DNA of 64,000 nt from a virus: IMG/VR virus record IMGVR_UViG_3300009104_001476; one strand, 5' to 3'. The translations under genes and the position numbers were made by a program. Of this stretch, positions 6,394-57,598 are shown piece after piece. Numbering within the stretch: the stretch's first letter is position 1; each line of letters starts with the position of its first letter. Below the pieces are notes generated by a model. The model did no database searches and was not told the DNA's origin. It was given only the letters and a program-made list of their open reading frames with translations.

Positions 6394-7236
6394 ATGGTTA
6401 TGTCAAAGAATCACCAAGCGTTAAACCCCCACTATGCAAGTTACAATTTTCTTCCTGTTATGAGTCGAGAGGAGGAGCTTGAGGTGGGTGCAAAACTATC
6501 TAGTAAAAACGAAAGAGAGAGGAGAAAAGCTCAAGAAGAATTTGTTAACAGAAATTTAAGGCTGGTAATAAAAATTGCTTCTGGATACTCAAGGTGTGGT
6601 CTTGAGTTAGACGACATGGTTTGCGAGGGAAATATGGGATTAATGGAAGCGGCTAAAAGGTATGACCCATTAGTAGGGACGAAGTTCAGCACTTATGCCG
6701 CTTATTGGATTCGTCAAAAAATAACCAGAGCATTATGTAATCATGGACGTTTAATTAGATTGCCTGTCCAGTTGGTTCAGTTACAACTAAAGGTTATCAA
6801 GTATGTAGACTCTTATTCTCAAGAGAACAATAACGAGGCTACCCCCAAACAAATTGCTGAAGCGTTGGAGGAGCCTGTCCATTTAGTTGAGAAAGTATTA
6901 AATTCAAAATACACTTTTACAAGCGTCGATTCTTTAATGTGCGCTGACGATGCTGCCTCAAGTTTTGGTAGCGTATTTGCTGATGAGAAAACTGATTCTC
7001 CATTAGACTCTCTTGTTAAGAATAATGACAAAGAAGTAATAAATAAATTCTTGAATAAACTTAAAGACAGAGAAAAGTATATCATTGAGCATAGGTTCGG
7101 TCTTAATAATAAAGATATAAAAACTTTAGAAAAAATAGGTGAAGAATTTAATGTCACTAGGGAGAGGATCAGACAGGTTGAGTTTGAGGCCATGAAGAAG
7201 TTACGTTTTGCAATACAGAAAGCGTATAAGGACTAA
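6394..7236 (+). CDS. RNA polymerase sigma70-family factor (RpoD/RpoS-like)
   Basis: Region 2 NLRLVIKIA, GNMGLMEAAKRYDP and KFSTYAAYWIRQ; region 4 TLEKIGEEFNVTRERIRQVE. Confidence 0.93.
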   Translation: MVMSKNHQALNPHYASYNFLPVMSREEELEVGAKLSSKNERERRKAQEEFVNRNLRLVIKIASGYSRCGLELDDMVCEGNMGLMEAAKRYDPLVGTKFSTYAAYWIRQKITRALCNHGRLIRLPVQLVQLQLKVIKYVDSYSQENNNEATPKQIAEALEEPVHLVEKVLNSKYTFTSVDSLMCADDAASSFGSVFADEKTDSPLDSLVKNNDKEVINKFLNKLKDREKYIIEHRFGLNNKDIKTLEKIGEEFNVTRERIRQVEFEAMKKLRFAIQKAYKD

Positions 7237-7245
7237 TTCCTTCTT

Positions 7246-7333
7246 GGGGAAGTGGTGGAATTGGCAGACACAACAGACTTAAAATCTGTCGAACATTGAG
7301 TTCGTGCGGGTTCAAGTCCCGCCTTCCCTACCA
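7246..7333 (+). tRNA. trnL: tRNA-Leu (anticodon UAA)
   Basis: Acceptor stem GGGGAAG/CTTCCCT, D-loop GG, anticodon arm ACAGA-CTTAAAA-TCTGT, long variable arm, GGTTCAAGTCC T-arm, encoded CCA. Confidence 0.96.
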
Positions 7334-7352: not shown

Positions 7353-7967
7353 ATGTTTGATGAATTTAAAACAATTTTTTCCAAACTCAAAGGTAGAGTT
7401 AATGAAAAGAGAAAGAAACTTGATAAGATTAAATTTAATAAGGTCGGAACTGGTGGAGCTAAAGAATATGGGATAAATGATGAAGAAGTTCAGAACTTAA
7501 AAGAGGTACGAAAGTTAAGACGTAAACCGCGACTGTACGGTAGACGTAAAAATTTCCGTCAGATTGCTGACGAGATGAACAAACAAGGACGTAAGAATCG
7601 TCAGGGTAATCCTTGGACAGAGCAAGCTATTAGAGTTATGTTTATTGATCGAACCGATAGAACTAAAGCTAATAAAAGACGTAAAAATCAGATTAAAAGT
7701 CTTGAAGCGGAGGTGGAATTTGATTTAACCCTTGAATACCTAGCTGAACTTTGGGAACAACAAAAGGGTTTGTGTGCTATCACTGGATTAAAAATGATTA
7801 AACCGGATCAGCCTAGATCACCTTTAAATGGTTCACCAGATAGAGTAGATTCCAGTAAAGGCTACGTTAAAGGTAACGTCCAGTGGTTATGCACGTTTGT
7901 TAATTATGCTAAAAATGATTTCAATAATAGGGAAATTAAGGAGATATTTCAAGCTATTAAGATTTGA
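7353..7967 (+). CDS. HNH-like endonuclease with N-terminal recombinase-type DNA-binding segment
   Basis: C-terminal CAITG...SPDRVDSSKGYVKGNVQWLCTFVNYAK. N-terminal RQIADEMNKQG...GNPW resembles the serine-recombinase accessory domain. Confidence 0.65.
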   Translation: MFDEFKTIFSKLKGRVNEKRKKLDKIKFNKVGTGGAKEYGINDEEVQNLKEVRKLRRKPRLYGRRKNFRQIADEMNKQGRKNRQGNPWTEQAIRVMFIDRTDRTKANKRRKNQIKSLEAEVEFDLTLEYLAELWEQQKGLCAITGLKMIKPDQPRSPLNGSPDRVDSSKGYVKGNVQWLCTFVNYAKNDFNNREIKEIFQAIKI

Positions 7968-10665: not shown

Positions 10666-11016
10666 ATGGAAAAACCAAAATTATCTTACTCAAGGCTGGA
10701 AGAAAAGCCATTACTATTTAATCAAGCAGCAATCGAAGCGGCAGTAGAGCATCTGAATAAACATGATGCTTATTACTATCAAGGTCTGCCAGAATTTGAA
10801 GCTGATGATAAATTTAAAGATTATTATATTCAAGAACACAATAGAGAACCAGAACAAGAAGATATTCAAAAGTATGTGGTAGATTTAATTATGGAGTGCG
10901 TAGAAGAAAACAAGAAAGAGCAGGAGAGAGTAGAGAAAAGTAAAGAGTCTTGTTCAAGGGTTAATATCTCACAAGGCCAAGAATATAATTCTAAAAAAAG
11001 AAAGAAAAAGGGTTGA
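10666..11016 (+). CDS. hypothetical protein
   Basis: ORF with ATTATG start. Confidence 0.55.
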   Translation: MEKPKLSYSRLEEKPLLFNQAAIEAAVEHLNKHDAYYYQGLPEFEADDKFKDYYIQEHNREPEQEDIQKYVVDLIMECVEENKKEQERVEKSKESCSRVNISQGQEYNSKKRKKKG

Positions 11017-11075
11017 CCCCGCTTTAACCATCTGTATAATAGAGAGAGTAAGCAGTTAAAGAAGGAAAAAATTAT

Positions 11076-11897
11076 ATGATACCATATATCTTAACCGAAA
11101 AGAGTCTAACGGTTGTAATCGAAGGCAAGGCTCATACTATGAACAACGATCACCCATCGTTTGAACGTGCTAAAGAAGCGTTAAAGGACGAGGAGTGGGA
11201 GCGTTTAGAAAACCTATTTGATGTATCGAAGGCAGTCGAAGACTATCTTGATTCAGATGCAGAAATCGAGGTAAAGGATGGAGCAGTATTCTACCAAGGT
11301 GAATCAGTTCACAACTTGGTCGTGGATAAGATTTTGAACTTCATGCGTAACAATGAGCCATATCAACCCTTGATTAAATTCCTTGGGAATATGATGGATA
11401 ACCCATCTCATCGTGCTATTGATGAGCTATACTCTTTCTTGGAGCATAAGGCGATGCCTATTACTCCTGACGGCAATTTCCTTGCCTACAAGGGTGTAAC
11501 CGATGATTTCAAGGACTTCCATACTCGTACCTTCTCCAATAAGGTTGGAGATGTGCTTGAAATGCGTAGGAATGGTGTGTGTGACGATGCTAACCTTGGT
11601 TGTTCGTCAGGATTCCATGCTGGTAGCTATGACTACGCTAAAGGGTATGCGAGTAACGGAGGCAATCTTATGATTGTTGAAATTAATCCAGCAGACGTTG
11701 TAAGCGTCCCTTATGATTGCAGTTGTCAGAAGTTGCGTACATCCAAGTATAAGGTTGTGGGTCATTACGAAACAGTTGATGCCCCGCCCTTAAATGAAGG
11801 TCTGAATACCGATTTTGGTGATTGGGATGAAGATTATAGTAGTGATTGGAATGAGGGTTACGAACAGGCCAAGAAGGACTTTGGGCTTGACGATTAG
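11076..11897 (+). CDS. rIIB: rIIB-like protein
   Basis: FLAYKGV, CSSGFHAGSYDYA, VEINPADVVSVP and KLRTSKYKVV motifs. Confidence 0.85.
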   Translation: MIPYILTEKSLTVVIEGKAHTMNNDHPSFERAKEALKDEEWERLENLFDVSKAVEDYLDSDAEIEVKDGAVFYQGESVHNLVVDKILNFMRNNEPYQPLIKFLGNMMDNPSHRAIDELYSFLEHKAMPITPDGNFLAYKGVTDDFKDFHTRTFSNKVGDVLEMRRNGVCDDANLGCSSGFHAGSYDYAKGYASNGGNLMIVEINPADVVSVPYDCSCQKLRTSKYKVVGHYETVDAPPLNEGLNTDFGDWDEDYSSDWNEGYEQAKKDFGLDD

Positions 11898-16102: not shown

Positions 16103-16402
16103 ATGAAACAATTCAACACACCAACTATATTATTTATTATTGTATTTAGTATTTATTTTTTATGTGGATGTTCTTCTCCTAATACAGTGGAGTATCTTTC
16201 TCCGTCTATGAGAGGAGCTTTCGGCCCACCAGCTAAAAAGGTTGAAGATAAGTCGCCTTGGGGTGACTTGAATAAACAGTATATCAGACAGATGTGGGGT
16301 AGATTCCCGAACGGAAGGCCTTGGAAGGGATCTTATGCTAGGCCAAATCCGTGGAAACACTCATACAGAGACGATGTTTATTGGAGTTGGAATTTCAAAT
16401 AA
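16103..16402 (+). CDS. putative lipoprotein
   Basis: Hydrophobic N-terminus with LCG-C lipobox, class B promoter 16065-16092, AGGAGG ribosome-binding site. Confidence 0.6.
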   Translation: MKQFNTPTILFIIVFSIYFLCGCSSPNTVEYLSPSMRGAFGPPAKKVEDKSPWGDLNKQYIRQMWGRFPNGRPWKGSYARPNPWKHSYRDDVYWSWNFK

Positions 16403-16440
16403 AAAACTTGCGTTTAGATTAACTACCCGTATAATGGGTA

Positions 16441-16920
16441 TAGTTCTTTGAGAGATTGACAATTTAAGTTGCGGAAACGCGACAACAATTTAAGCTGACG
16501 ACGGTTGGCTTAAGGGAATGGCTGAACAACCCTCCATCATAAGGGGTAAGGCATAGGGATACGTGTTAGAGTATAATCGTATGAGACACGTGTTTCTAGT
16601 AGACTGGTAAACTTGAACTGTATTGTGCACTGGTCTTGATGGTAATGCAGCAATCCATCTTCCCATTAATTTTGTGCGTGGTGCTGGGTTACAGGCCACG
16701 TAACAGGAAGAAACACAGGTTACCTCAACCGGAAGCGCGTAAGTATTCCTCGCGTCTGCAAAGGGAGAAGCAGCGGGTAACCAACGTGAGATCCCAAAAT
16801 TTCCGTAGTCCAAAATCAAAGGGCTACGGTTTCAACAAGGTCGGGAAAAACAAACGCAGTTGATGCGCCCGTTAAAGATGAGTTCACACCGAACGTGACC
16901 ATCGCCTTGTTATTTTTTTT
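16441..16920 (+). ncRNA. large structured non-coding RNA of unassigned family
   Basis: Own promoter (TTGCGT 16408, TATAAT 16430), many G-U-containing helices, ends in CCTTGTT plus T8, no credible ORF. Confidence 0.7.
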
Positions 16921-17279
16921 GCCCTAATAGCACTTGGCACGAATCGTGCTGCCCGATTTCAACCAAGTGTCAAGCGTAAAGTTATTCACACCTCAAAAAA
17001 TTTCTTAAAATCAACGAATTTCACACCGGAGAAAGTGGGGGTAAACAAGAAATTTTCAGGCATGATACCTCACAAAAGCAGGGCTTTCTTTCAAAACAAT
17101 TACCCCCTTTGTCGCTCATTAATTGCCATAATTGATTGACAAACTATTTTGCCGCTCATTTGTGATCGACAAAAAAATGCATCTAATGTGCATTTAATGC
17201 TTGTCACAGGCTTAACTATGCTTATAATGGTTATAACAGTTTGAGACATTAACACTAGAAAAAAGGAACTATATATATT

Positions 17280-18182
17280 ATGCCTATAGAAGCAAAACAA
17301 CAGATTGATGAGGGCTACGACTTCACCGCCAAACAGGTTGAAGTACCCCATCCAATCACCGGAAAAAAATCCGGTTATTACATGAACATCCGTGAAGACA
17401 CGGGCGACATCATGGGGTGGACTACTGACCGTTACGGTCTGGTTAATCACCGTGACATAGTAGGGTTTGCAGACAATGCGTTTGCTGACCGTGGTATCGA
17501 GGTTAATCGTAAAGTTTACGTGACCGAAAACGGTGCGAAGTGCCGTGCGGTTTATGACCTTATCGGTTCGGAATATCAAGCGGAAGTTCCCCAAGTCGGT
17601 GACATTATGGGCTATCGTTTGACTGCTCAAAACTCGCTTGACCGTAGTCTTCGGATGGCTTATTCGTTAGGCTTAAAGCGTCTGGCTTGTTTGAATGGCA
17701 TGACCACAACCGAGTCGGAAGTGGAAATGACAAAGAAACATTCTTTGAATGTTAACTTGAACGAGGTGCTTTCTCCAAAAGCCTTGGATACTGCTCTTGC
17801 CAAGATGAAGCAGAGCCTGACTGTTTACGGTCGGTTGTCGCAGTCGGAAGTTTCTCAAGAGCAAGGAATCATTATCCTTCAGAACCTAGCAAATGCCAAG
17901 GTGTTTTCTGAAAAGGTGCGTGAGTCTATCGCTCAAGTTTGGAACGGCCAACCAGAGGGACTTGGCAGAGGTGGAGATGCCGATAAGAGTCGGAACCTTT
18001 ACAACCTTAACAATGCCGTCACGGAGCATTTGACCTATGAGGTTGCGGATACTCGTTTCGAGTATGCAAATCGTGTGACCTCTCAAGTCTTAAAGAGGTT
18101 CGACAAGGCGACTCGGAACCAAAAAGTTTTGGAGAAACTTTGGACTCCCGCCAAAAATGATCAAATAGTGATTACTGAGTAG
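17280..18182 (+). CDS. DUF932/DUF945-like phage protein
   Basis: REDTGDIMG-x3-DRYGLVNH and NSLDRS...LACLNGM patterns. Confidence 0.7.
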   Translation: MPIEAKQQIDEGYDFTAKQVEVPHPITGKKSGYYMNIREDTGDIMGWTTDRYGLVNHRDIVGFADNAFADRGIEVNRKVYVTENGAKCRAVYDLIGSEYQAEVPQVGDIMGYRLTAQNSLDRSLRMAYSLGLKRLACLNGMTTTESEVEMTKKHSLNVNLNEVLSPKALDTALAKMKQSLTVYGRLSQSEVSQEQGIIILQNLANAKVFSEKVRESIAQVWNGQPEGLGRGGDADKSRNLYNLNNAVTEHLTYEVADTRFEYANRVTSQVLKRFDKATRNQKVLEKLWTPAKNDQIVITE

Positions 18183-51724: not shown

Positions 51725-54700
51725 ATGATTAGTAATGTAAACATTCAAAGTGAATCGATTACAGACATTCTTAGCGCTCCTCTGGGTGTTCATTATGTTA
51801 TATACTGTGTTTATTTTTGCAATAAATCAGACACCAAAGAAGAAACGGTTACGATCCATTTAGCTGACGGATCGACAAGCTCTTTTAATTCAGAGACAAC
51901 TATACTTAAGGAAGTAATTATCCCCCCGGGGGAGACTTTCGTTTTAGGATCTTCTAAGAAGCTTTCTAACGTTGTTCATTACATGAAAAAAAGAGGAATT
52001 GAAGAAAACAAAATATATTTAAACCCGGGTGAGACTTTGGCCGCCTCCTCTTCTGGCCTTAACGTTGTAGCTTCTCCTATTTATTATAAGTTTGGTGAGG
52101 AAGAAAGGGATAATCCGATAGAAAGCCCTACTCCCACGCCTTCTGTGACCCCTAGCTCTGGAGTAATAAGCGAGTTTTGTCCTTGTAATCGTAATCCAAA
52201 TGATCAATATCAATATTCTGATTATGCTCATGTGAATACAGGAAATAATTTTTTCCTAGTCCCTTATAATGATACTATTTCTCCTCATGCAACCTCAGGT
52301 AAAACTATATTTAAAGCAGGGGATTGTATTTGGTATAAAACCCGTCCTTTTGGAACAATTGAACATCAAACACCTACATGGATCAATAAAGTTGGAAGAG
52401 TTGAAGGCCCTGTGTATCATGGAAACGATCCTTATTATAAAATAATTTTATATGAAAGACTTCCAGAGAGATTAGTAGTCGGAACTCAAATTTATAGATG
52501 TGACTCTTCGGTTCACGGGCTTACCCCAACCCCGACAAGCTCTATTACTCCCACGCCTTCTGTAACGCCCTCAAAAGTAACCCCGAGTGCAACCCCTACA
52601 AATAGTACGACCCCGAGCGCGACTCCGAGCGTGACTCCAAGCAATACTCCTACTAATAGTAGAACCCCAACTACAACACCAACTCCTACAGCATCTGAAC
52701 CGGTTCTCGGATGCGAAATTGAAGTAAGCGGTGCTCCTATCTCAATTATTAATGGGCTATACGAGCCAGCTGGTACACATAACGTATGGGGGTCAACTAG
52801 AACCTATTATCGCCAAGTTTGGCCCGAGAACACCCCCTCCAAGGCTGGAGCGCACGAATCTCGTTACTTTAAAATGTGGCACGATTCCGTTCGGTGGATT
52901 GTCGGTCGATTTCTGGGTACACCGGGGTTGGGAAACGAATGGATCCAATCCCAAGATACGCAAGCTGTACATCCTTGGAGCGCGCCTTGGGGGCATTCAT
53001 ACCCTCTGCCTTCTTGGGGCACCTCTGTATCGCAAGTTATCTGTCCAACCCCGAGCGTGACCCCAAGCGTGACCCCGACCAATACCCCTACGAATAGCGT
53101 TACTCCGAGTAATACTCCGAGCGTTAGCCTAAGCAGTAGCCCGGGTAGTTCCCCAAGTAATACCCCGAGTAATACTCCAAGTAATACTCCAAGTAATACT
53201 CCAAGTAATACTCCAAGCAATACCCCGAGTAATACTCCAAGTAGTACCCCGAGTATAACGCCTACGTCTTCTATGACTCTTTGTTCTTGCACTACTGCTG
53301 CATGGCACCCTGACTCGTCTATAGCAGATCCAGCACCTCATGATTTGTACGAAGCCGCCTCTGGAAATTCCGGCTCCCATACGATCGAAATGCCGTGGGG
53401 CACGGTAGCAGCACCGGGGCACGTCCATCCAGTTTTAAAAGAAGGGGATTGTGTTTATTTCCGTCAGCCAAGCGGGCCGAACCCTAATGGTAGGTTTGGT
53501 AACGGTCCATTTTATTTTCGTAAAATTATTAGTCGAAGTAATCCTGATCCCCACGGCCAAGGCGGTTATCGGACTTTTACAATAGACGCTCCTCTCCCGT
53601 TTAATCTTTGGAACTCCGGGTGGGGGACTCAAGTCCATTTATGCGGTTCGTCTACACTCGTGCCCACCCCGACGCCTAGCCCGACTCCTCCTCCTACCCC
53701 GAGCACTGTTCCGCCGTCTAATTGTGACCCATTTGCTAGTTATGTTACTATCGCTATCGATAATGATCAACCTTCAACTTGGGGTCCGGGAAAACTTAAT
53801 GATCTTACAGGAAATAATACTGTCTATGATGCAAGCGTCGGTAGATGGTTTCCTGCGGGCGACACTCTGGGTAGCTTCACGCGGAAAGACTTTACTATAG
53901 AAGCGGTGGTTAAAAATCCCGCTTCGGGTAACGGGATTTTAAGTCAATGGTATAGTCGTGAACAAACTGGAAACTGTTTTATAATGTATTTCTATCCTTG
54001 GCCACGCCTATGGGTTGAAACACCTTTTGGTCTTATCCAAGGGAAAACCGACTTTTCCGGAGGGGGGGAATTCCACATAGTCCTGAACAGGTCAGGGCAA
54101 AATATTGATCTCTTTGTCAATGGGGAATTAGATACTCATCTAGAAAGGTCTCGGTCTTATCCATGGCCGGCGTGTGATAGTAATTATAGAGCGAGCATTG
54201 GTGGGTTTGGTCGTAACGAGGAAAATAACACCGTTTGGGGGAACGGTGACCCCGTGACTAAACTAAGGGTGACAAAGGGTGTCGCAAGGTATGATCTTAA
54301 TAACATCAAAGCTGGATCTTTAGAATTCTTAACAAGGCCTATATCGGTTAAGTCTTGCGATGGGACGGTAGAGGGAGTGGATTGTGGTGTTTTCGAACAT
54401 ACCGCAACAAAAACATTGTATACGTTGAGTAATAGCAGTTTTAATTATGACACTTTGTCTGAGTATAATTCACGTCGGGATGCTGATGTGCAAAGTGATA
54501 TGCCAGCGGGGTGGGAGCCTGCAGATTGGTCAGATTTTGCGAGTTTTACTAAACAAGATTTTATAAATTTGATAAACGTTATAGGCCCCTGTCATTCAAA
54601 CGACCCCATGGATTATGAAGCCGCTGTTAATACGGTCGGTAGTGACTACGAATGGAATTTGGGGTGGGTAGGAAAATGTTCTACAGCTAATAGCCAGTTC

Positions 54701-57340
54701 CCATTCTTTTTAACATTTGCTAATGGAGTTAAGCCTAGGTGGTACTCTCGGCATTGCAACTACTTAAACGACTTTATGATTACGGGAGCTTGGTACTCTA
54801 ACATGCAGCACGTAATAAAGAAGAAGGATGAGAGTACCCCTTTACCAAGCTTAACTCCCACTCCTAGCGCTTCGGAAAAAGTAAAAACTGAAATAGAATA
54901 CTGTAAGCCTCTTTTTGCTTCTTTATATAATATAATAGCTTTTTCTCCACACGCCTTACAAGCTAATGGAGTTTATTCTTTCGAAGATGGTAGTGTCTCG
55001 ACATTGCCTAACGTGAGGAATTTTGCCATCTCTCAAAACTCTAATCATAGTTGGATAAATGCATTATTTCAGCTTGAAATGATTAGCAGAAATGAACAAA
55101 CAAACTTAGAAACTTGGAGGTTAACTTTAACGAATTGGCCAAAACTAGACGGAACACTATACCCAATCGTTGCGGGCACGGATAGCGCTTATTACATTAG
55201 TGAAGAAGTTAAAGCTAAAAGTGGCAATTTATTAGACTTTAGATTTAAAGGCAACGGTTCTGTTCTGGTAGATTTCGATGAAGACCTAAAAAATACTTGC
55301 GAGGATAAACCTATTAATCTTTGCAGTAATGTTACCAAACCAGATTATTGGTACATGCATAATAACCATATTGCAGGAATTACTCATCATAGAATGAACC
55401 TTTTTAATTCTGAAACTCTCGTTGCGGATCGGGCTGGCTGGGGACAATGGATTGGTTTCAATGCAGGGGACTTTCGACCTTATTTTAACCATCTGACGCT
55501 TTTAACGCTGAAGTATACCGCTGCCGAAACAGCTAAACATAAGATGGCCAATTTAAAGACCTTCGTAGGAGGGAATAATCCTTTCCAGCTCAATAAATAT
55601 GATTTCCAAGGACCTTGGGTAAAAAATATAAGCGATACGCGACACATAAAACTAACTGTTCATATTAATGATGTTTTCCGACATAGTATAGTAATTCCTA
55701 ATGTTAAATATTCAACCAATCACAATATGGATAACGACTTGACTCTCTTACTCTCAGGTAGTTATTATGTAGTTGATCCATTATCATATGAAGTAGAACA
55801 GGGAGATGAAGTTACCATAAGCTTGACAGTTGAGAACTCTCCGGGGCTTCTTGTAAACGGGTCGGAACATTCATTAGTAATATCGAAAGGCTCATCTACT
55901 GGGTTAAGTAAATTGAGCAACGTTGTGACGTATTGGGACTCTAACGATAACCCATTTAAAGACTTTAATACTTTACAAGGGAACAATTTGGTTAAGGCGT
56001 TTTTGCCTATTTATGGTTTATCTTATGATCAGGCAGTTGATGAAGGACTTGTTCACTTGGCGGGCTTAAGCGAGCATATAACTGCGATATCGGATAATAA
56101 TGGCCAATTAGTCAATATCCTGCCGGGGGCCAGCCCCGGGGACGTGAGCGGCGTCTTGGTTATAGATACGTATGAAGACTTGTTCTTTTCCGCGTCAAAT
56201 ATGGAAGTGGGAGATACGGTAAATTTAAACGCGAACGTGTACCCGGGCCTAAAGAGACTATTTAATAACGTGTCAGGATTACAGGGGGTCGTTAAATATA
56301 AATTTGGAATTTTATATGTGATAAGTTGGACCTTGAATACGAACGGCAGTAGAGCTAAGAAAACTCTTTCCGAGATTAGACGTTTTGACAGCGCGAGGGC
56401 TCATTGGAAGTTCTTAAACTATGATAAATGCACAAGCGGTACTAATCCCGGCGTTAGCCCAAGTTTAGGAATTACTCCTACGCCTTCTCCAACACCATCT
56501 CTTAATTTAAATACGAGACCTGATCCATGCAATAATACATATTCAGCAGAAGGCGTTACGTTTACCGCAAACGACACCACCGTTTTACATGGTGGGACCT
56601 TGCCTGTTCGTAGCGGTCAGGCAATTACTGTTAGGTGGCCAGACGGTCAAACAAGTGGAGGTCTTGCCGCGTTGGGAGGTCTTGGGAGGCCAAATATTAA
56701 TCAGTTCCTTCCTAGTTGCAATCCAGACGGAACTTATCATATAAGGTTAGCTGCTAAGCCTACGGAAGTTGAAGACTACCTTAGGGATTGTATGGGACCA
56801 GACTGCACGGGCACCTATGGCACTGCTTGCCCTCATTACGTATGTATAGACGGTAAAACTGTCAGAGAGTATACTTTTTATCACGTGGCTGGTAAATCCT
56901 CATATGAATTTTGGTGTTCAATTGGGCCTGACAAAAAACTCTTTAGTAAAGCCACGCTTAACGTGGCCGAATCTTCGTCAGCAGGGTGCGAAGCAAATGA
57001 CCCTGCGACAATGACTGCAAGGCTGGCAGGACCTTGGATGGGAGATAGACCTCCGTATAAATGTCAGGGGGGCGGAGTCTACGCTGACGGTCCTTTCTCA
57101 TGGGCCGATACTGCAGCACAGGGGAGTTTCCCGAAGTGGGTTGGACCTCTATGCGAGTTGGAATGTTTATCCGGAAGGTTTTCTTCTATACAAGTTTGGC
57201 AATTAACCGTATCAGGATGGTCGTATTGTAAAGGGCCCGAATATGTCGCCATAGCTGAAAAGGCCCCAGATGAGGATTCGATAACTTTTAATATAGGATC
57301 AGGAACTATTGAGATAGGATTTCATAAAGTCTGCCCTTAA
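51725..57340 (+). CDS. 1871 aa multidomain virion/adhesin protein with Pro/Thr/Ser linkers and a LamG-like domain
   Basis: PTPTPS linkers between Cys-bracketed domains; DFTIEAVVK...FHIVLNRSG...LFVNG. Confidence 0.75.
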   Translation: MISNVNIQSESITDILSAPLGVHYVIYCVYFCNKSDTKEETVTIHLADGSTSSFNSETTILKEVIIPPGETFVLGSSKKLSNVVHYMKKRGIEENKIYLNPGETLAASSSGLNVVASPIYYKFGEEERDNPIESPTPTPSVTPSSGVISEFCPCNRNPNDQYQYSDYAHVNTGNNFFLVPYNDTISPHATSGKTIFKAGDCIWYKTRPFGTIEHQTPTWINKVGRVEGPVYHGNDPYYKIILYERLPERLVVGTQIYRCDSSVHGLTPTPTSSITPTPSVTPSKVTPSATPTNSTTPSATPSVTPSNTPTNSRTPTTTPTPTASEPVLGCEIEVSGAPISIINGLYEPAGTHNVWGSTRTYYRQVWPENTPSKAGAHESRYFKMWHDSVRWIVGRFLGTPGLGNEWIQSQDTQAVHPWSAPWGHSYPLPSWGTSVSQVICPTPSVTPSVTPTNTPTNSVTPSNTPSVSLSSSPGSSPSNTPSNTPSNTPSNTPSNTPSNTPSNTPSSTPSITPTSSMTLCSCTTAAWHPDSSIADPAPHDLYEAASGNSGSHTIEMPWGTVAAPGHVHPVLKEGDCVYFRQPSGPNPNGRFGNGPFYFRKIISRSNPDPHGQGGYRTFTIDAPLPFNLWNSGWGTQVHLCGSSTLVPTPTPSPTPPPTPSTVPPSNCDPFASYVTIAIDNDQPSTWGPGKLNDLTGNNTVYDASVGRWFPAGDTLGSFTRKDFTIEAVVKNPASGNGILSQWYSREQTGNCFIMYFYPWPRLWVETPFGLIQGKTDFSGGGEFHIVLNRSGQNIDLFVNGELDTHLERSRSYPWPACDSNYRASIGGFGRNEENNTVWGNGDPVTKLRVTKGVARYDLNNIKAGSLEFLTRPISVKSCDGTVEGVDCGVFEHTATKTLYTLSNSSFNYDTLSEYNSRRDADVQSDMPAGWEPADWSDFASFTKQDFINLINVIGPCHSNDPMDYEAAVNTVGSDYEWNLGWVGKCSTANSQFPFFLTFANGVKPRWYSRHCNYLNDFMITGAWYSNMQHVIKKKDESTPLPSLTPTPSASEKVKTEIEYCKPLFASLYNIIAFSPHALQANGVYSFEDGSVSTLPNVRNFAISQNSNHSWINALFQLEMISRNEQTNLETWRLTLTNWPKLDGTLYPIVAGTDSAYYISEEVKAKSGNLLDFRFKGNGSVLVDFDEDLKNTCEDKPINLCSNVTKPDYWYMHNNHIAGITHHRMNLFNSETLVADRAGWGQWIGFNAGDFRPYFNHLTLLTLKYTAAETAKHKMANLKTFVGGNNPFQLNKYDFQGPWVKNISDTRHIKLTVHINDVFRHSIVIPNVKYSTNHNMDNDLTLLLSGSYYVVDPLSYEVEQGDEVTISLTVENSPGLLVNGSEHSLVISKGSSTGLSKLSNVVTYWDSNDNPFKDFNTLQGNNLVKAFLPIYGLSYDQAVDEGLVHLAGLSEHITAISDNNGQLVNILPGASPGDVSGVLVIDTYEDLFFSASNMEVGDTVNLNANVYPGLKRLFNNVSGLQGVVKYKFGILYVISWTLNTNGSRAKKTLSEIRRFDSARAHWKFLNYDKCTSGTNPGVSPSLGITPTPSPTPSLNLNTRPDPCNNTYSAEGVTFTANDTTVLHGGTLPVRSGQAITVRWPDGQTSGGLAALGGLGRPNINQFLPSCNPDGTYHIRLAAKPTEVEDYLRDCMGPDCTGTYGTACPHYVCIDGKTVREYTFYHVAGKSSYEFWCSIGPDKKLFSKATLNVAESSSAGCEANDPATMTARLAGPWMGDRPPYKCQGGGVYADGPFSWADTAAQGSFPKWVGPLCELECLSGRFSSIQVWQLTVSGWSYCKGPEYVAIAEKAPDEDSITFNIGSGTIEIGFHKVCP
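53156..53251 (+). repeat. 12 bp coding tandem repeat (SNTP x7 plus SSTP)
   Basis: AGTAATACTCCA / AGTAATACCCCG units. Confidence 0.92.
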
Positions 57341-57379
57341 TTTTAGACTTTTAGATATTGAAGTGTATAATATTTTATA

Positions 57380-57598
57380 GGTTGGCCACATTGGGTGAAT
57401 TCGGTGGAACTCTCTTTTTAGAGACAATACCGAGCCAAGCCAGAGGGGGTATTGATACTCTGGAAGGTGTAGAGACTAGGCGGTGAGACCCGACAATAAC
57501 CCGCCCACGAGCGCCCAACGCTATCTAGTGAAGATATAGTCCGAACTATACGGTGACGTATAGAAGCTGCAATTAAAAAACCAGCGATAACATAAATG
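57380..57598 (+). ncRNA. group I intron/ribozyme core (IA-like, ORF-less), permuted relative to its 5' splice site
   Basis: P3 TTGGGTG/CGCCCAA; P4 TTCGGT/ACCGAG; P6; P7 GACTA/TAGTC; J8/7 AAGATA; P7.1 GGCGG/CCGCC; P8; P9 CTATAC/GTATAG; omega-G at 57598. Confidence 0.9.

Follow-up and report, generated by a model that had tools for sequence, protein, structure and literature searches.

The manA motif (RF01745) was classed as probably cis-regulatory by Rfam and by Weinberg et al. 2010 (PMC2864571), and it has been catalogued from 2010 onward as a probable riboswitch without a known ligand. In 2026, manA RNAs of less than 200 nt were reported to form closed 8-, 10-, and 60-mer assemblies in vitro through kissing loops, the 60-subunit assemblies being cages in the test tube (preprint 10.64898/2026.07.01.735769). 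This preprint is silent on genomic context and in vivo role, and it still terms manA putatively cis-regulatory. Leaders carrying a boxA element are typical of stable RNA operons (PMC5725501). The RNA unit described here resembles GOLLD and ROOL in its association with phages, its lack of encoded protein, and its length of several hundred nucleotides, and its core family is reported to be self-assembling; it differs from them in that small, exchangeable modules are strung together in place of a single large conserved fold.

The window (the whole 64-kb stretch of DNA analyzed here) came from a 142-kb IMG/VR virus record obtained from marine metagenomes. The genes of the phage included rIIA/rIIB and those encoding a clamp loader, a terminase, and a sigma-70-family factor of its own. 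The nearest cultured matches shared 27–30% identity in rIIA and no more than 27% in the terminase, and these relatives were so distant that the phage was regarded as an uncultured lineage and not as a known cyanophage. The RNA stretch was located between a 99-aa ORF (ending at 16402) and a DUF932 gene (starting at 17280). Two overlapping ORFs, 16636–16863 on the plus strand and 16490–16819 on the minus strand, had no match in Pfam or PHROG, and indels broke both of them in the relatives, in agreement with an earlier note on this DNA that had taken them to be spurious. The stretch is without coding capacity. BLASTn analysis of 16300–17300 returned no match among the genomes of cultured phages. 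When relatives were sought through the upstream 99-aa ORF, none was found, and the DUF932 gene led to one locus, which had manA elsewhere in it.

The region from about 16442 to 16920 is probably a self-standing, protein-free RNA gene with a manA core, which would act in trans and not as a switch of the next gene. Comparison with relatives showed structure-preserving change in the helices and loops of manA and in the four modules behind it (H1 to H4), which supports the predicted RNA gene. The earlier note was right in describing a non-coding, densely folded RNA unit, with a promoter of its own and a T run at its end, that is not a tmRNA, RNase P RNA, SRP RNA, or intron.

Its description of the RNA as unassigned was wrong. 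The cmscan search against Rfam that it had proposed gave manA (RF01745) above the cut-off: 16491–16669 on the plus strand matched model positions 1–192 of 192 with 71.9 bits (E = 4e-18), the curated gathering score being 55.2 bits. The central 179 nt are therefore a clear member of the manA family. With this match, the suggestion of a new class falls; a match to GOLLD or ROOL was likewise not obtained and the core is a known one, while the comparison with those RNAs was apt in one point, the self-assembly reported for manA RNAs. The Rfam scan of 16300–17300 at E ≤ 10 with permissive filters gave only manA and three chance-level hits. The manA domains of the relatives scored 59.7–77.9 bits.

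Alignment to the manA model placed the P1 hairpin, with a GACG-type loop, at 16491–16513 and the enclosing helix GGGAR...YUCCC at 16514–18/16660–64. These elements and the conserved junction sequences are shared with the described motif (RF01745; PMC2864571). The enclosing helix was the long-range pair GGGAA 16514/TTCCC 16660, which had been suggested before and proved to be real. The other suggested long-range pair, GGGAT 16556/ATCCC 16791, was unsupported, since one relative (L063) lacked the ATCCC segment and a metagenome variant had it changed; GGGAT pairs locally within manA. P1 co-varied among metagenome variants (loose ends at 16512). The central multi-stem region of the model (about positions 70–122) showed a gapped alignment with low posterior probability, and this part was replaced here by one long hairpin at 16554–16597, in which 16566/16586 and 16567/16585 changed together in metagenome variants.

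Two hairpin loops of the manA domain were complementary to each other (CUGU at 16618–21 and GCAG at 16647–50). In L063 the same loops were CUUU and AAAG, a compensatory change. Complementary, co-varying loops of this type may form a contact of the kissing-loop kind reported for the cage-forming manA RNAs. Both belong to the same RNA family; the cage-forming constructs were made without the extensions present in the window, and their assembly was observed in vitro for other sequences. The copy in the window is marine and phage-borne, like most known manA members. It differs from them in that it is not placed in a 5' UTR and lies within a terminated non-coding unit with modules on both sides, and its carrier is not a T4-like cyanophage.

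The borders of the manA domain were determined from the relatives, in which a block corresponding to 16484–16673 (plus strand) was conserved with sharp edges. The identity of this block was 88–89% in L004 and L005 (whose clamp loader was 66–67% identical to that of the window), 76% in L002, and 71% in L010; the manA copies of L002 and L010 were at other places in their genomes. In L004 and L005 the similarity began abruptly at 16484 and ended at 16673, and the flanks were different. The sharp edges place a 5' hairpin (16468–16483) and the whole 3' half of the unit outside manA. For both of these parts, no match was obtained in 14 loci of the nearest relatives. The 3' half was missing from L004 and L005, and it was present as a single copy in the genome of the phage itself.

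Upstream of manA, a sigma-70-type promoter was read from the sequence at 16408–16435 (plus strand), with the -35 box TTGCGT (16408–13), a 16-nt spacer, and the -10 box TATAAT (16430–35); the predicted transcription start was at about 16442. This promoter and the T8 run at 16913–20 were both at the positions given previously. The promoter was below the threshold of a simple scan because its -35 box matches the consensus in only three of six positions. The -10 box followed by the same leader was also present at the homologous units of L098, L099, L004, and L108, which had a better -35 box. In the window the -10 box lies in a palindrome of 5 + 5 nt, which might alternatively belong to the end of the transcript of the upstream gene.

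The promoter was followed by a boxA-like leader (16443–16466, plus strand), composed of GTTCTTTGAGA (16443–53), which starts 7 nt downstream of the -10 box, and ACAATTT (16459–65). GTTCTTTGAGA matched the boxA consensus GYTCTTTAANA (PMC5725501) in 10 of 11 positions, with G in place of A at position 8; this consensus is gamma-proteobacterial and may differ from that of the host, and the element is a putative boxA. With R allowed at position 8, the motif was unique on both strands of the 64-kb window; since 1.3 matches are expected by chance in 64 kb, the single match is not significant by itself. More telling is its recurrence: nine of ten related lineages carry the motif after the promoter and ahead of their first module, in some of them behind a small hairpin. 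As in the boxA leaders of rRNA operons and the lambda nut sites, the boxA-like 11-mer heads a predicted untranslated, structured transcript.

The 5' hairpin at 16468–16483 (plus strand) consisted of 6 bp and a GAAA tetraloop, and was flanked by two exact copies of ACAATTTAAG (16459–68 and 16485–94). In phage nut sites boxA is followed by boxB. The GAAA-loop hairpin, lying 14 nt after the boxA-like motif, recalls this order. The hairpin was lineage-specific, being missing in L004 and L005. The ACAATTT spacers were also considered as an enriched motif, and this was rejected: they were no commoner in the window than expected by chance, and the copy at 7370 falls within an ORF.

Behind manA, the H1 module (16675–16702, plus strand) consisted of a 7-bp stem and a conserved 14-nt loop (16682–95). 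The loop was found again in L109 and L108 and, in two copies, in L094/L098. Its stem varied, the fourth pair being G-C, G-U, or A-U; the loop occurred once in the genome of the phage itself. A further locus retrieved with the H1 loop pattern (L110) was a chance match in coding sequence.

The H2 module (16718–16782, plus strand) was a three-way junction with an outer helix (16718–24/16776–82), an arm A (16735–39/16751–55) carrying a conserved 11-nt loop, and an arm B (16756–59/16770–73) carrying a purine-rich loop. Homologues of H2 were found at L109:62-144 and L108:5045-5127(-). The L109 sequence begins in the 3' end of manA and continues with H1 and H2 in the same order as in the window. Over the three phages, 9 of the 16 pairs of H2 were compensatory and 1 was one-sided, and 1 of 48 cells was broken (counted by script on a hand-anchored alignment; MAFFT mis-registered the outer helix). 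All three helices co-varied, while the junction strand and the 11-nt loop were conserved. In two metagenome variants the change T16755C converted a G-U pair of H2 into G-C. H2 had also been considered as a variant of a smaller element, module B, of L004, L096, L100, and L101; this was dropped, the true homologues of H2 having been found. By this comparison, H1 and H2 are candidates for two small RNA motifs without an Rfam match, and they have good comparative support. In the searchable literature, the H1 and H2 motifs were not found, nor was manA as a module of a stand-alone, boxA-led unit.

The unit ended with the H3 hairpin (16803–16829, plus strand; 9 bp and a 9-nt loop) and the H4 three-way junction (16835–16920, plus strand), which was composed of a closing helix (16835–41/16905–11), two arms, a single A, and T8 (16913–20). 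H4 and T8 presumably represent the intrinsic terminator and the 3' end. The stem before T8 was the AU-rich 8-bp closing helix of the junction and not a classic GC hairpin, and a simple terminator scan was silent. A metagenome pattern scan with a 19-mer gave 75 loci, of which L063 alone was homologous; it kept H3, H4, T8, the palindrome behind, and the DUF932 promoter. The sequences of the window and L063 folded independently to the same hairpin and three-way junction. Of the 33 pairs in H3 and H4, 27 were unchanged, 5 differed on one side, 1 was compensatory (G-C to A-U), and none was broken, while the loops and an inner hairpin were rewritten. The H3 stem was kept in L063, where a single C-to-U substitution leaves the pair intact; a metagenome variant had its H3 changes within the loop. 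L063 also conserved T8 and the next 20 nt. Directly behind T8, at 16921–16970, there was a palindrome of about 41 bp containing TGGCAC-type boxes. The window has eight such palindromes, several of them immediately behind T-runs; the copy after T8 and the preceding 20 nt were nearly identical in L063.

Exact-pattern scans of IMG/VR found neither the 25-mer of H2 nor the end of H4 with T8, and the only find of the exact H3 pattern (L018) was an unrelated terminator. A covariance model of H3–H4 retrieved only its own two source sequences, and a kinship of H4 with the "TTAAAG" terminal modules of L096, L100, L101, and L109 is accordingly a judgment by eye.

Folded as RNA, the whole 486 nt was more stable than 100 of 100 shuffled sequences (z = -3.0). 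The folding of the 3' half alone (256 nt) was marginal (z = -1.9), with 8 of 200 shuffles folding equally well; its reality thus rests on the comparison with relatives and not on the folding energy. All helices listed in the earlier note were found where it had placed them, including 16468–83, 16490–513, the stems within 16554–16669, H1 (16675–16702), the junctions at 16718/16776 and 16835/16905, and 16803–29. A single integrated, ornate fold of 480 nt is probably not formed: among the relatives, modules are retained, lost, or rearranged independently of one another.

Contigs covering 16200–17300 were collected from four public runs, and stretches left uncovered in this sample carry no meaning. 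A 432-nt contig from another study spanned 16489–16919 as one block with about 95% identity. A more divergent contig covered 16725–16930, most of its changes falling in hairpin loops and one converting G-U to G-C. A 185-nt metatranscriptome contig matched 16593–16770 with about 95% identity and bridged manA, H1, and H2; it may be a weak hint of co-transcription, or could represent DNA carry-over.

The organization of the unit was compared with 11 loci, representing ten lineages of related uncultured marine phages. All 11 loci had manA above the Rfam cut-off, and all had, between manA and the next credible ORF, a T-run with a preceding helix, 26–271 nt past manA. From manA to the T-run, the sequence was unrelated between lineages; the distance from promoter to manA was 31–300 nt, and the modules differed in kind and order. 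The layout of a promoter, a boxA-like leader, shuffled modules including manA, and a terminator was found in nine of the ten lineages. In L102, manA directly followed an ORF and was at once followed by a simple terminator. A unit of about 480 nt at L108:5410-4890(-) contained a promoter, a boxA-like leader, H1, a tRNA-like module, H2, and a terminator, with no manA detected by Rfam, showing that the module chain exists without manA.

The tRNA-like module (conserved, about 110–150 nt) was found at L004:10775-10927, L010:10790-10885, and L108:5255-5130(-), and in L096 at about 200–30 nt upstream of manA. It contained a T arm with a TTCGA-type loop and a co-varying stem, and an acceptor-like helix; it was called by neither ARAGORN nor Rfam. 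Module B, a conserved element of about 45 nt, was found at L004:11112-11156, L096:1256-1301, L100:5389-5437, and L101:2458-2504(-). Its outer helix co-varied, its inner hairpin carried an AGAGG-type loop, and its fold support was weak; it was placed after manA in L004/L005 and before manA in L096, L100, and L101.

Downstream of the unit, the DUF932 gene (17280–18182) had its own promoter at 17201–28, which matched 11 of 12 consensus positions. The manA domain is followed by 244 nt of other modules, T8, 290 nt to this separate promoter, and the ORF at 17280. The DUF932 promoter and its leader were nearly identical in L063, and the same layout was present in L096. The leader after the promoter held a shortened boxA-like motif, TTTGAGAC.

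It is quite unlikely that the unit is a cis-acting leader, in which manA as a riboswitch-type sensor would set read-through at T8 into DUF932 and the early genes behind it. Such a role would agree with the classification of manA by Rfam and Weinberg et al. 2010 (PMC2864571), and in every lineage a terminator and a same-strand ORF came, in this order, after manA. The layout of L102 and L106, in which the ORF begins 25–45 nt past the T-run, is that of a classic riboswitch and speaks against a stand-alone gene. In the window, by contrast, 360 nt separate the unit from the next gene, which has a strong, conserved promoter of its own, and among the relatives the downstream genes vary between lineages. 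The terminator is 26–271 nt from manA, behind unrelated modules that fold independently, and a non-systematic look revealed no apparent common alternative pairing that would involve the 3' strand of manA. In L108, a unit built in the same way lacks manA, and a boxA leader is a typical feature of stable RNA operons. The recurrent context, a stand-alone unit with its own terminator, argues for a free RNA over a gene switch. The reading that only manA is functional, with the 250 nt behind it being filler or decayed DNA whose folding is accidental, is very improbable. It would account for the folding of the 3' half marginally above shuffles (z = -1.9), and for the fact that this half was unmatched in the 14 loci of the nearest relatives and missing in L004/L005 despite their 88–89% identity in manA. 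It is largely refuted by the pair counts of H3/H4 and H2: all 33 pairs of H3/H4 were kept in L063 while the loops changed, and H2 had 9 of 16 compensatory pairs and conserved loops over three phages. The H1 loop, moreover, was present in four other phage lineages.

The transcript could also be a polycistronic precursor of 480 nt, cut, for example, at the ACAAUUU spacers into manA (about 185 nt), H1, H2, and H3–H4, each product having a role of its own, like the small stable RNAs from T4 tRNA clusters. This overlaps with the self-standing RNA gene and differs from it only in the fate of the RNA after transcription; we consider it unlikely. The modules were gained, lost, and reordered independently among the phages, ACAATTT-type spacers were present at module borders (16459 and 16485 in the window; also in L010, L096, and L100), and the tRNA-like module of the relatives, with its T arm and acceptor-like helix, would invite tRNA-processing enzymes. 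On the other hand, the spacer motif occurs at chance frequency in the window and may in part belong to an extended boxA, and the metatranscriptome contig crosses the manA/H1/H2 border.

For the self-standing RNA gene, the following mechanism is proposed. A host-type RNA polymerase would start at the sigma-70-like promoter, and the boxA-like element in the first transcribed bases would probably recruit Nus factors, as in rRNA operons. This recruitment would let the untranslated, highly folded transcript escape Rho termination. The transcript would be a string of independently folding modules (the GNRA hairpin, manA, H1, H2, H3, and the Y-shaped H4), and transcription would end at the U8 tract. 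The manA domain would be the functional core, most likely forming a closed homo-multimer through loop–loop contacts, on the analogy of the cryo-EM work in the preprint. The other modules may ride on the manA multimer or be cut off as separate binding elements. The RNA would act in trans during infection, as an RNA particle or a scaffold.

In this phage and in about ten related ones, manA would appear to be an exchangeable module of a stand-alone RNA gene with transcription in the style of rRNA. A further-reaching possibility, which is put forward only tentatively and is rather doubtful, is that these units are "RNA operons": boxA-driven, terminator-ended cassettes that mix manA, H1, H2, the tRNA-like module, and others in different combinations between lineages, with manA forming a cage in infected cells and the other modules, attached or released, decorating it or recruiting host factors. 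If so, a natural RNA-only compartment would for the first time have a genetic context and a path to function. The units with and without extensions provide natural constructs for manA assembly tests.

Several other features were observed in the window. The sigma-70-family factor (6394–7236; Pfam Sigma70_r2 and Sigma70_r4) was located immediately upstream of a tRNA-Leu(UAA) gene (7246–7333) and may be related to the several promoter classes of the genome. A group I intron (RF00028, 76.5 bits) at 57341–57563 begins at the end of a 1871-aa ORF (51725–57340), which may continue past it, and precedes a 1202-aa ORF with collagen repeats. The rIIB gene (10666–11897) appeared as two ORFs, one of 116 aa and one of 273 aa; the 273-aa ORF, the one of the pair that was scanned, matched the C-terminal quarter of the rIIB profile.
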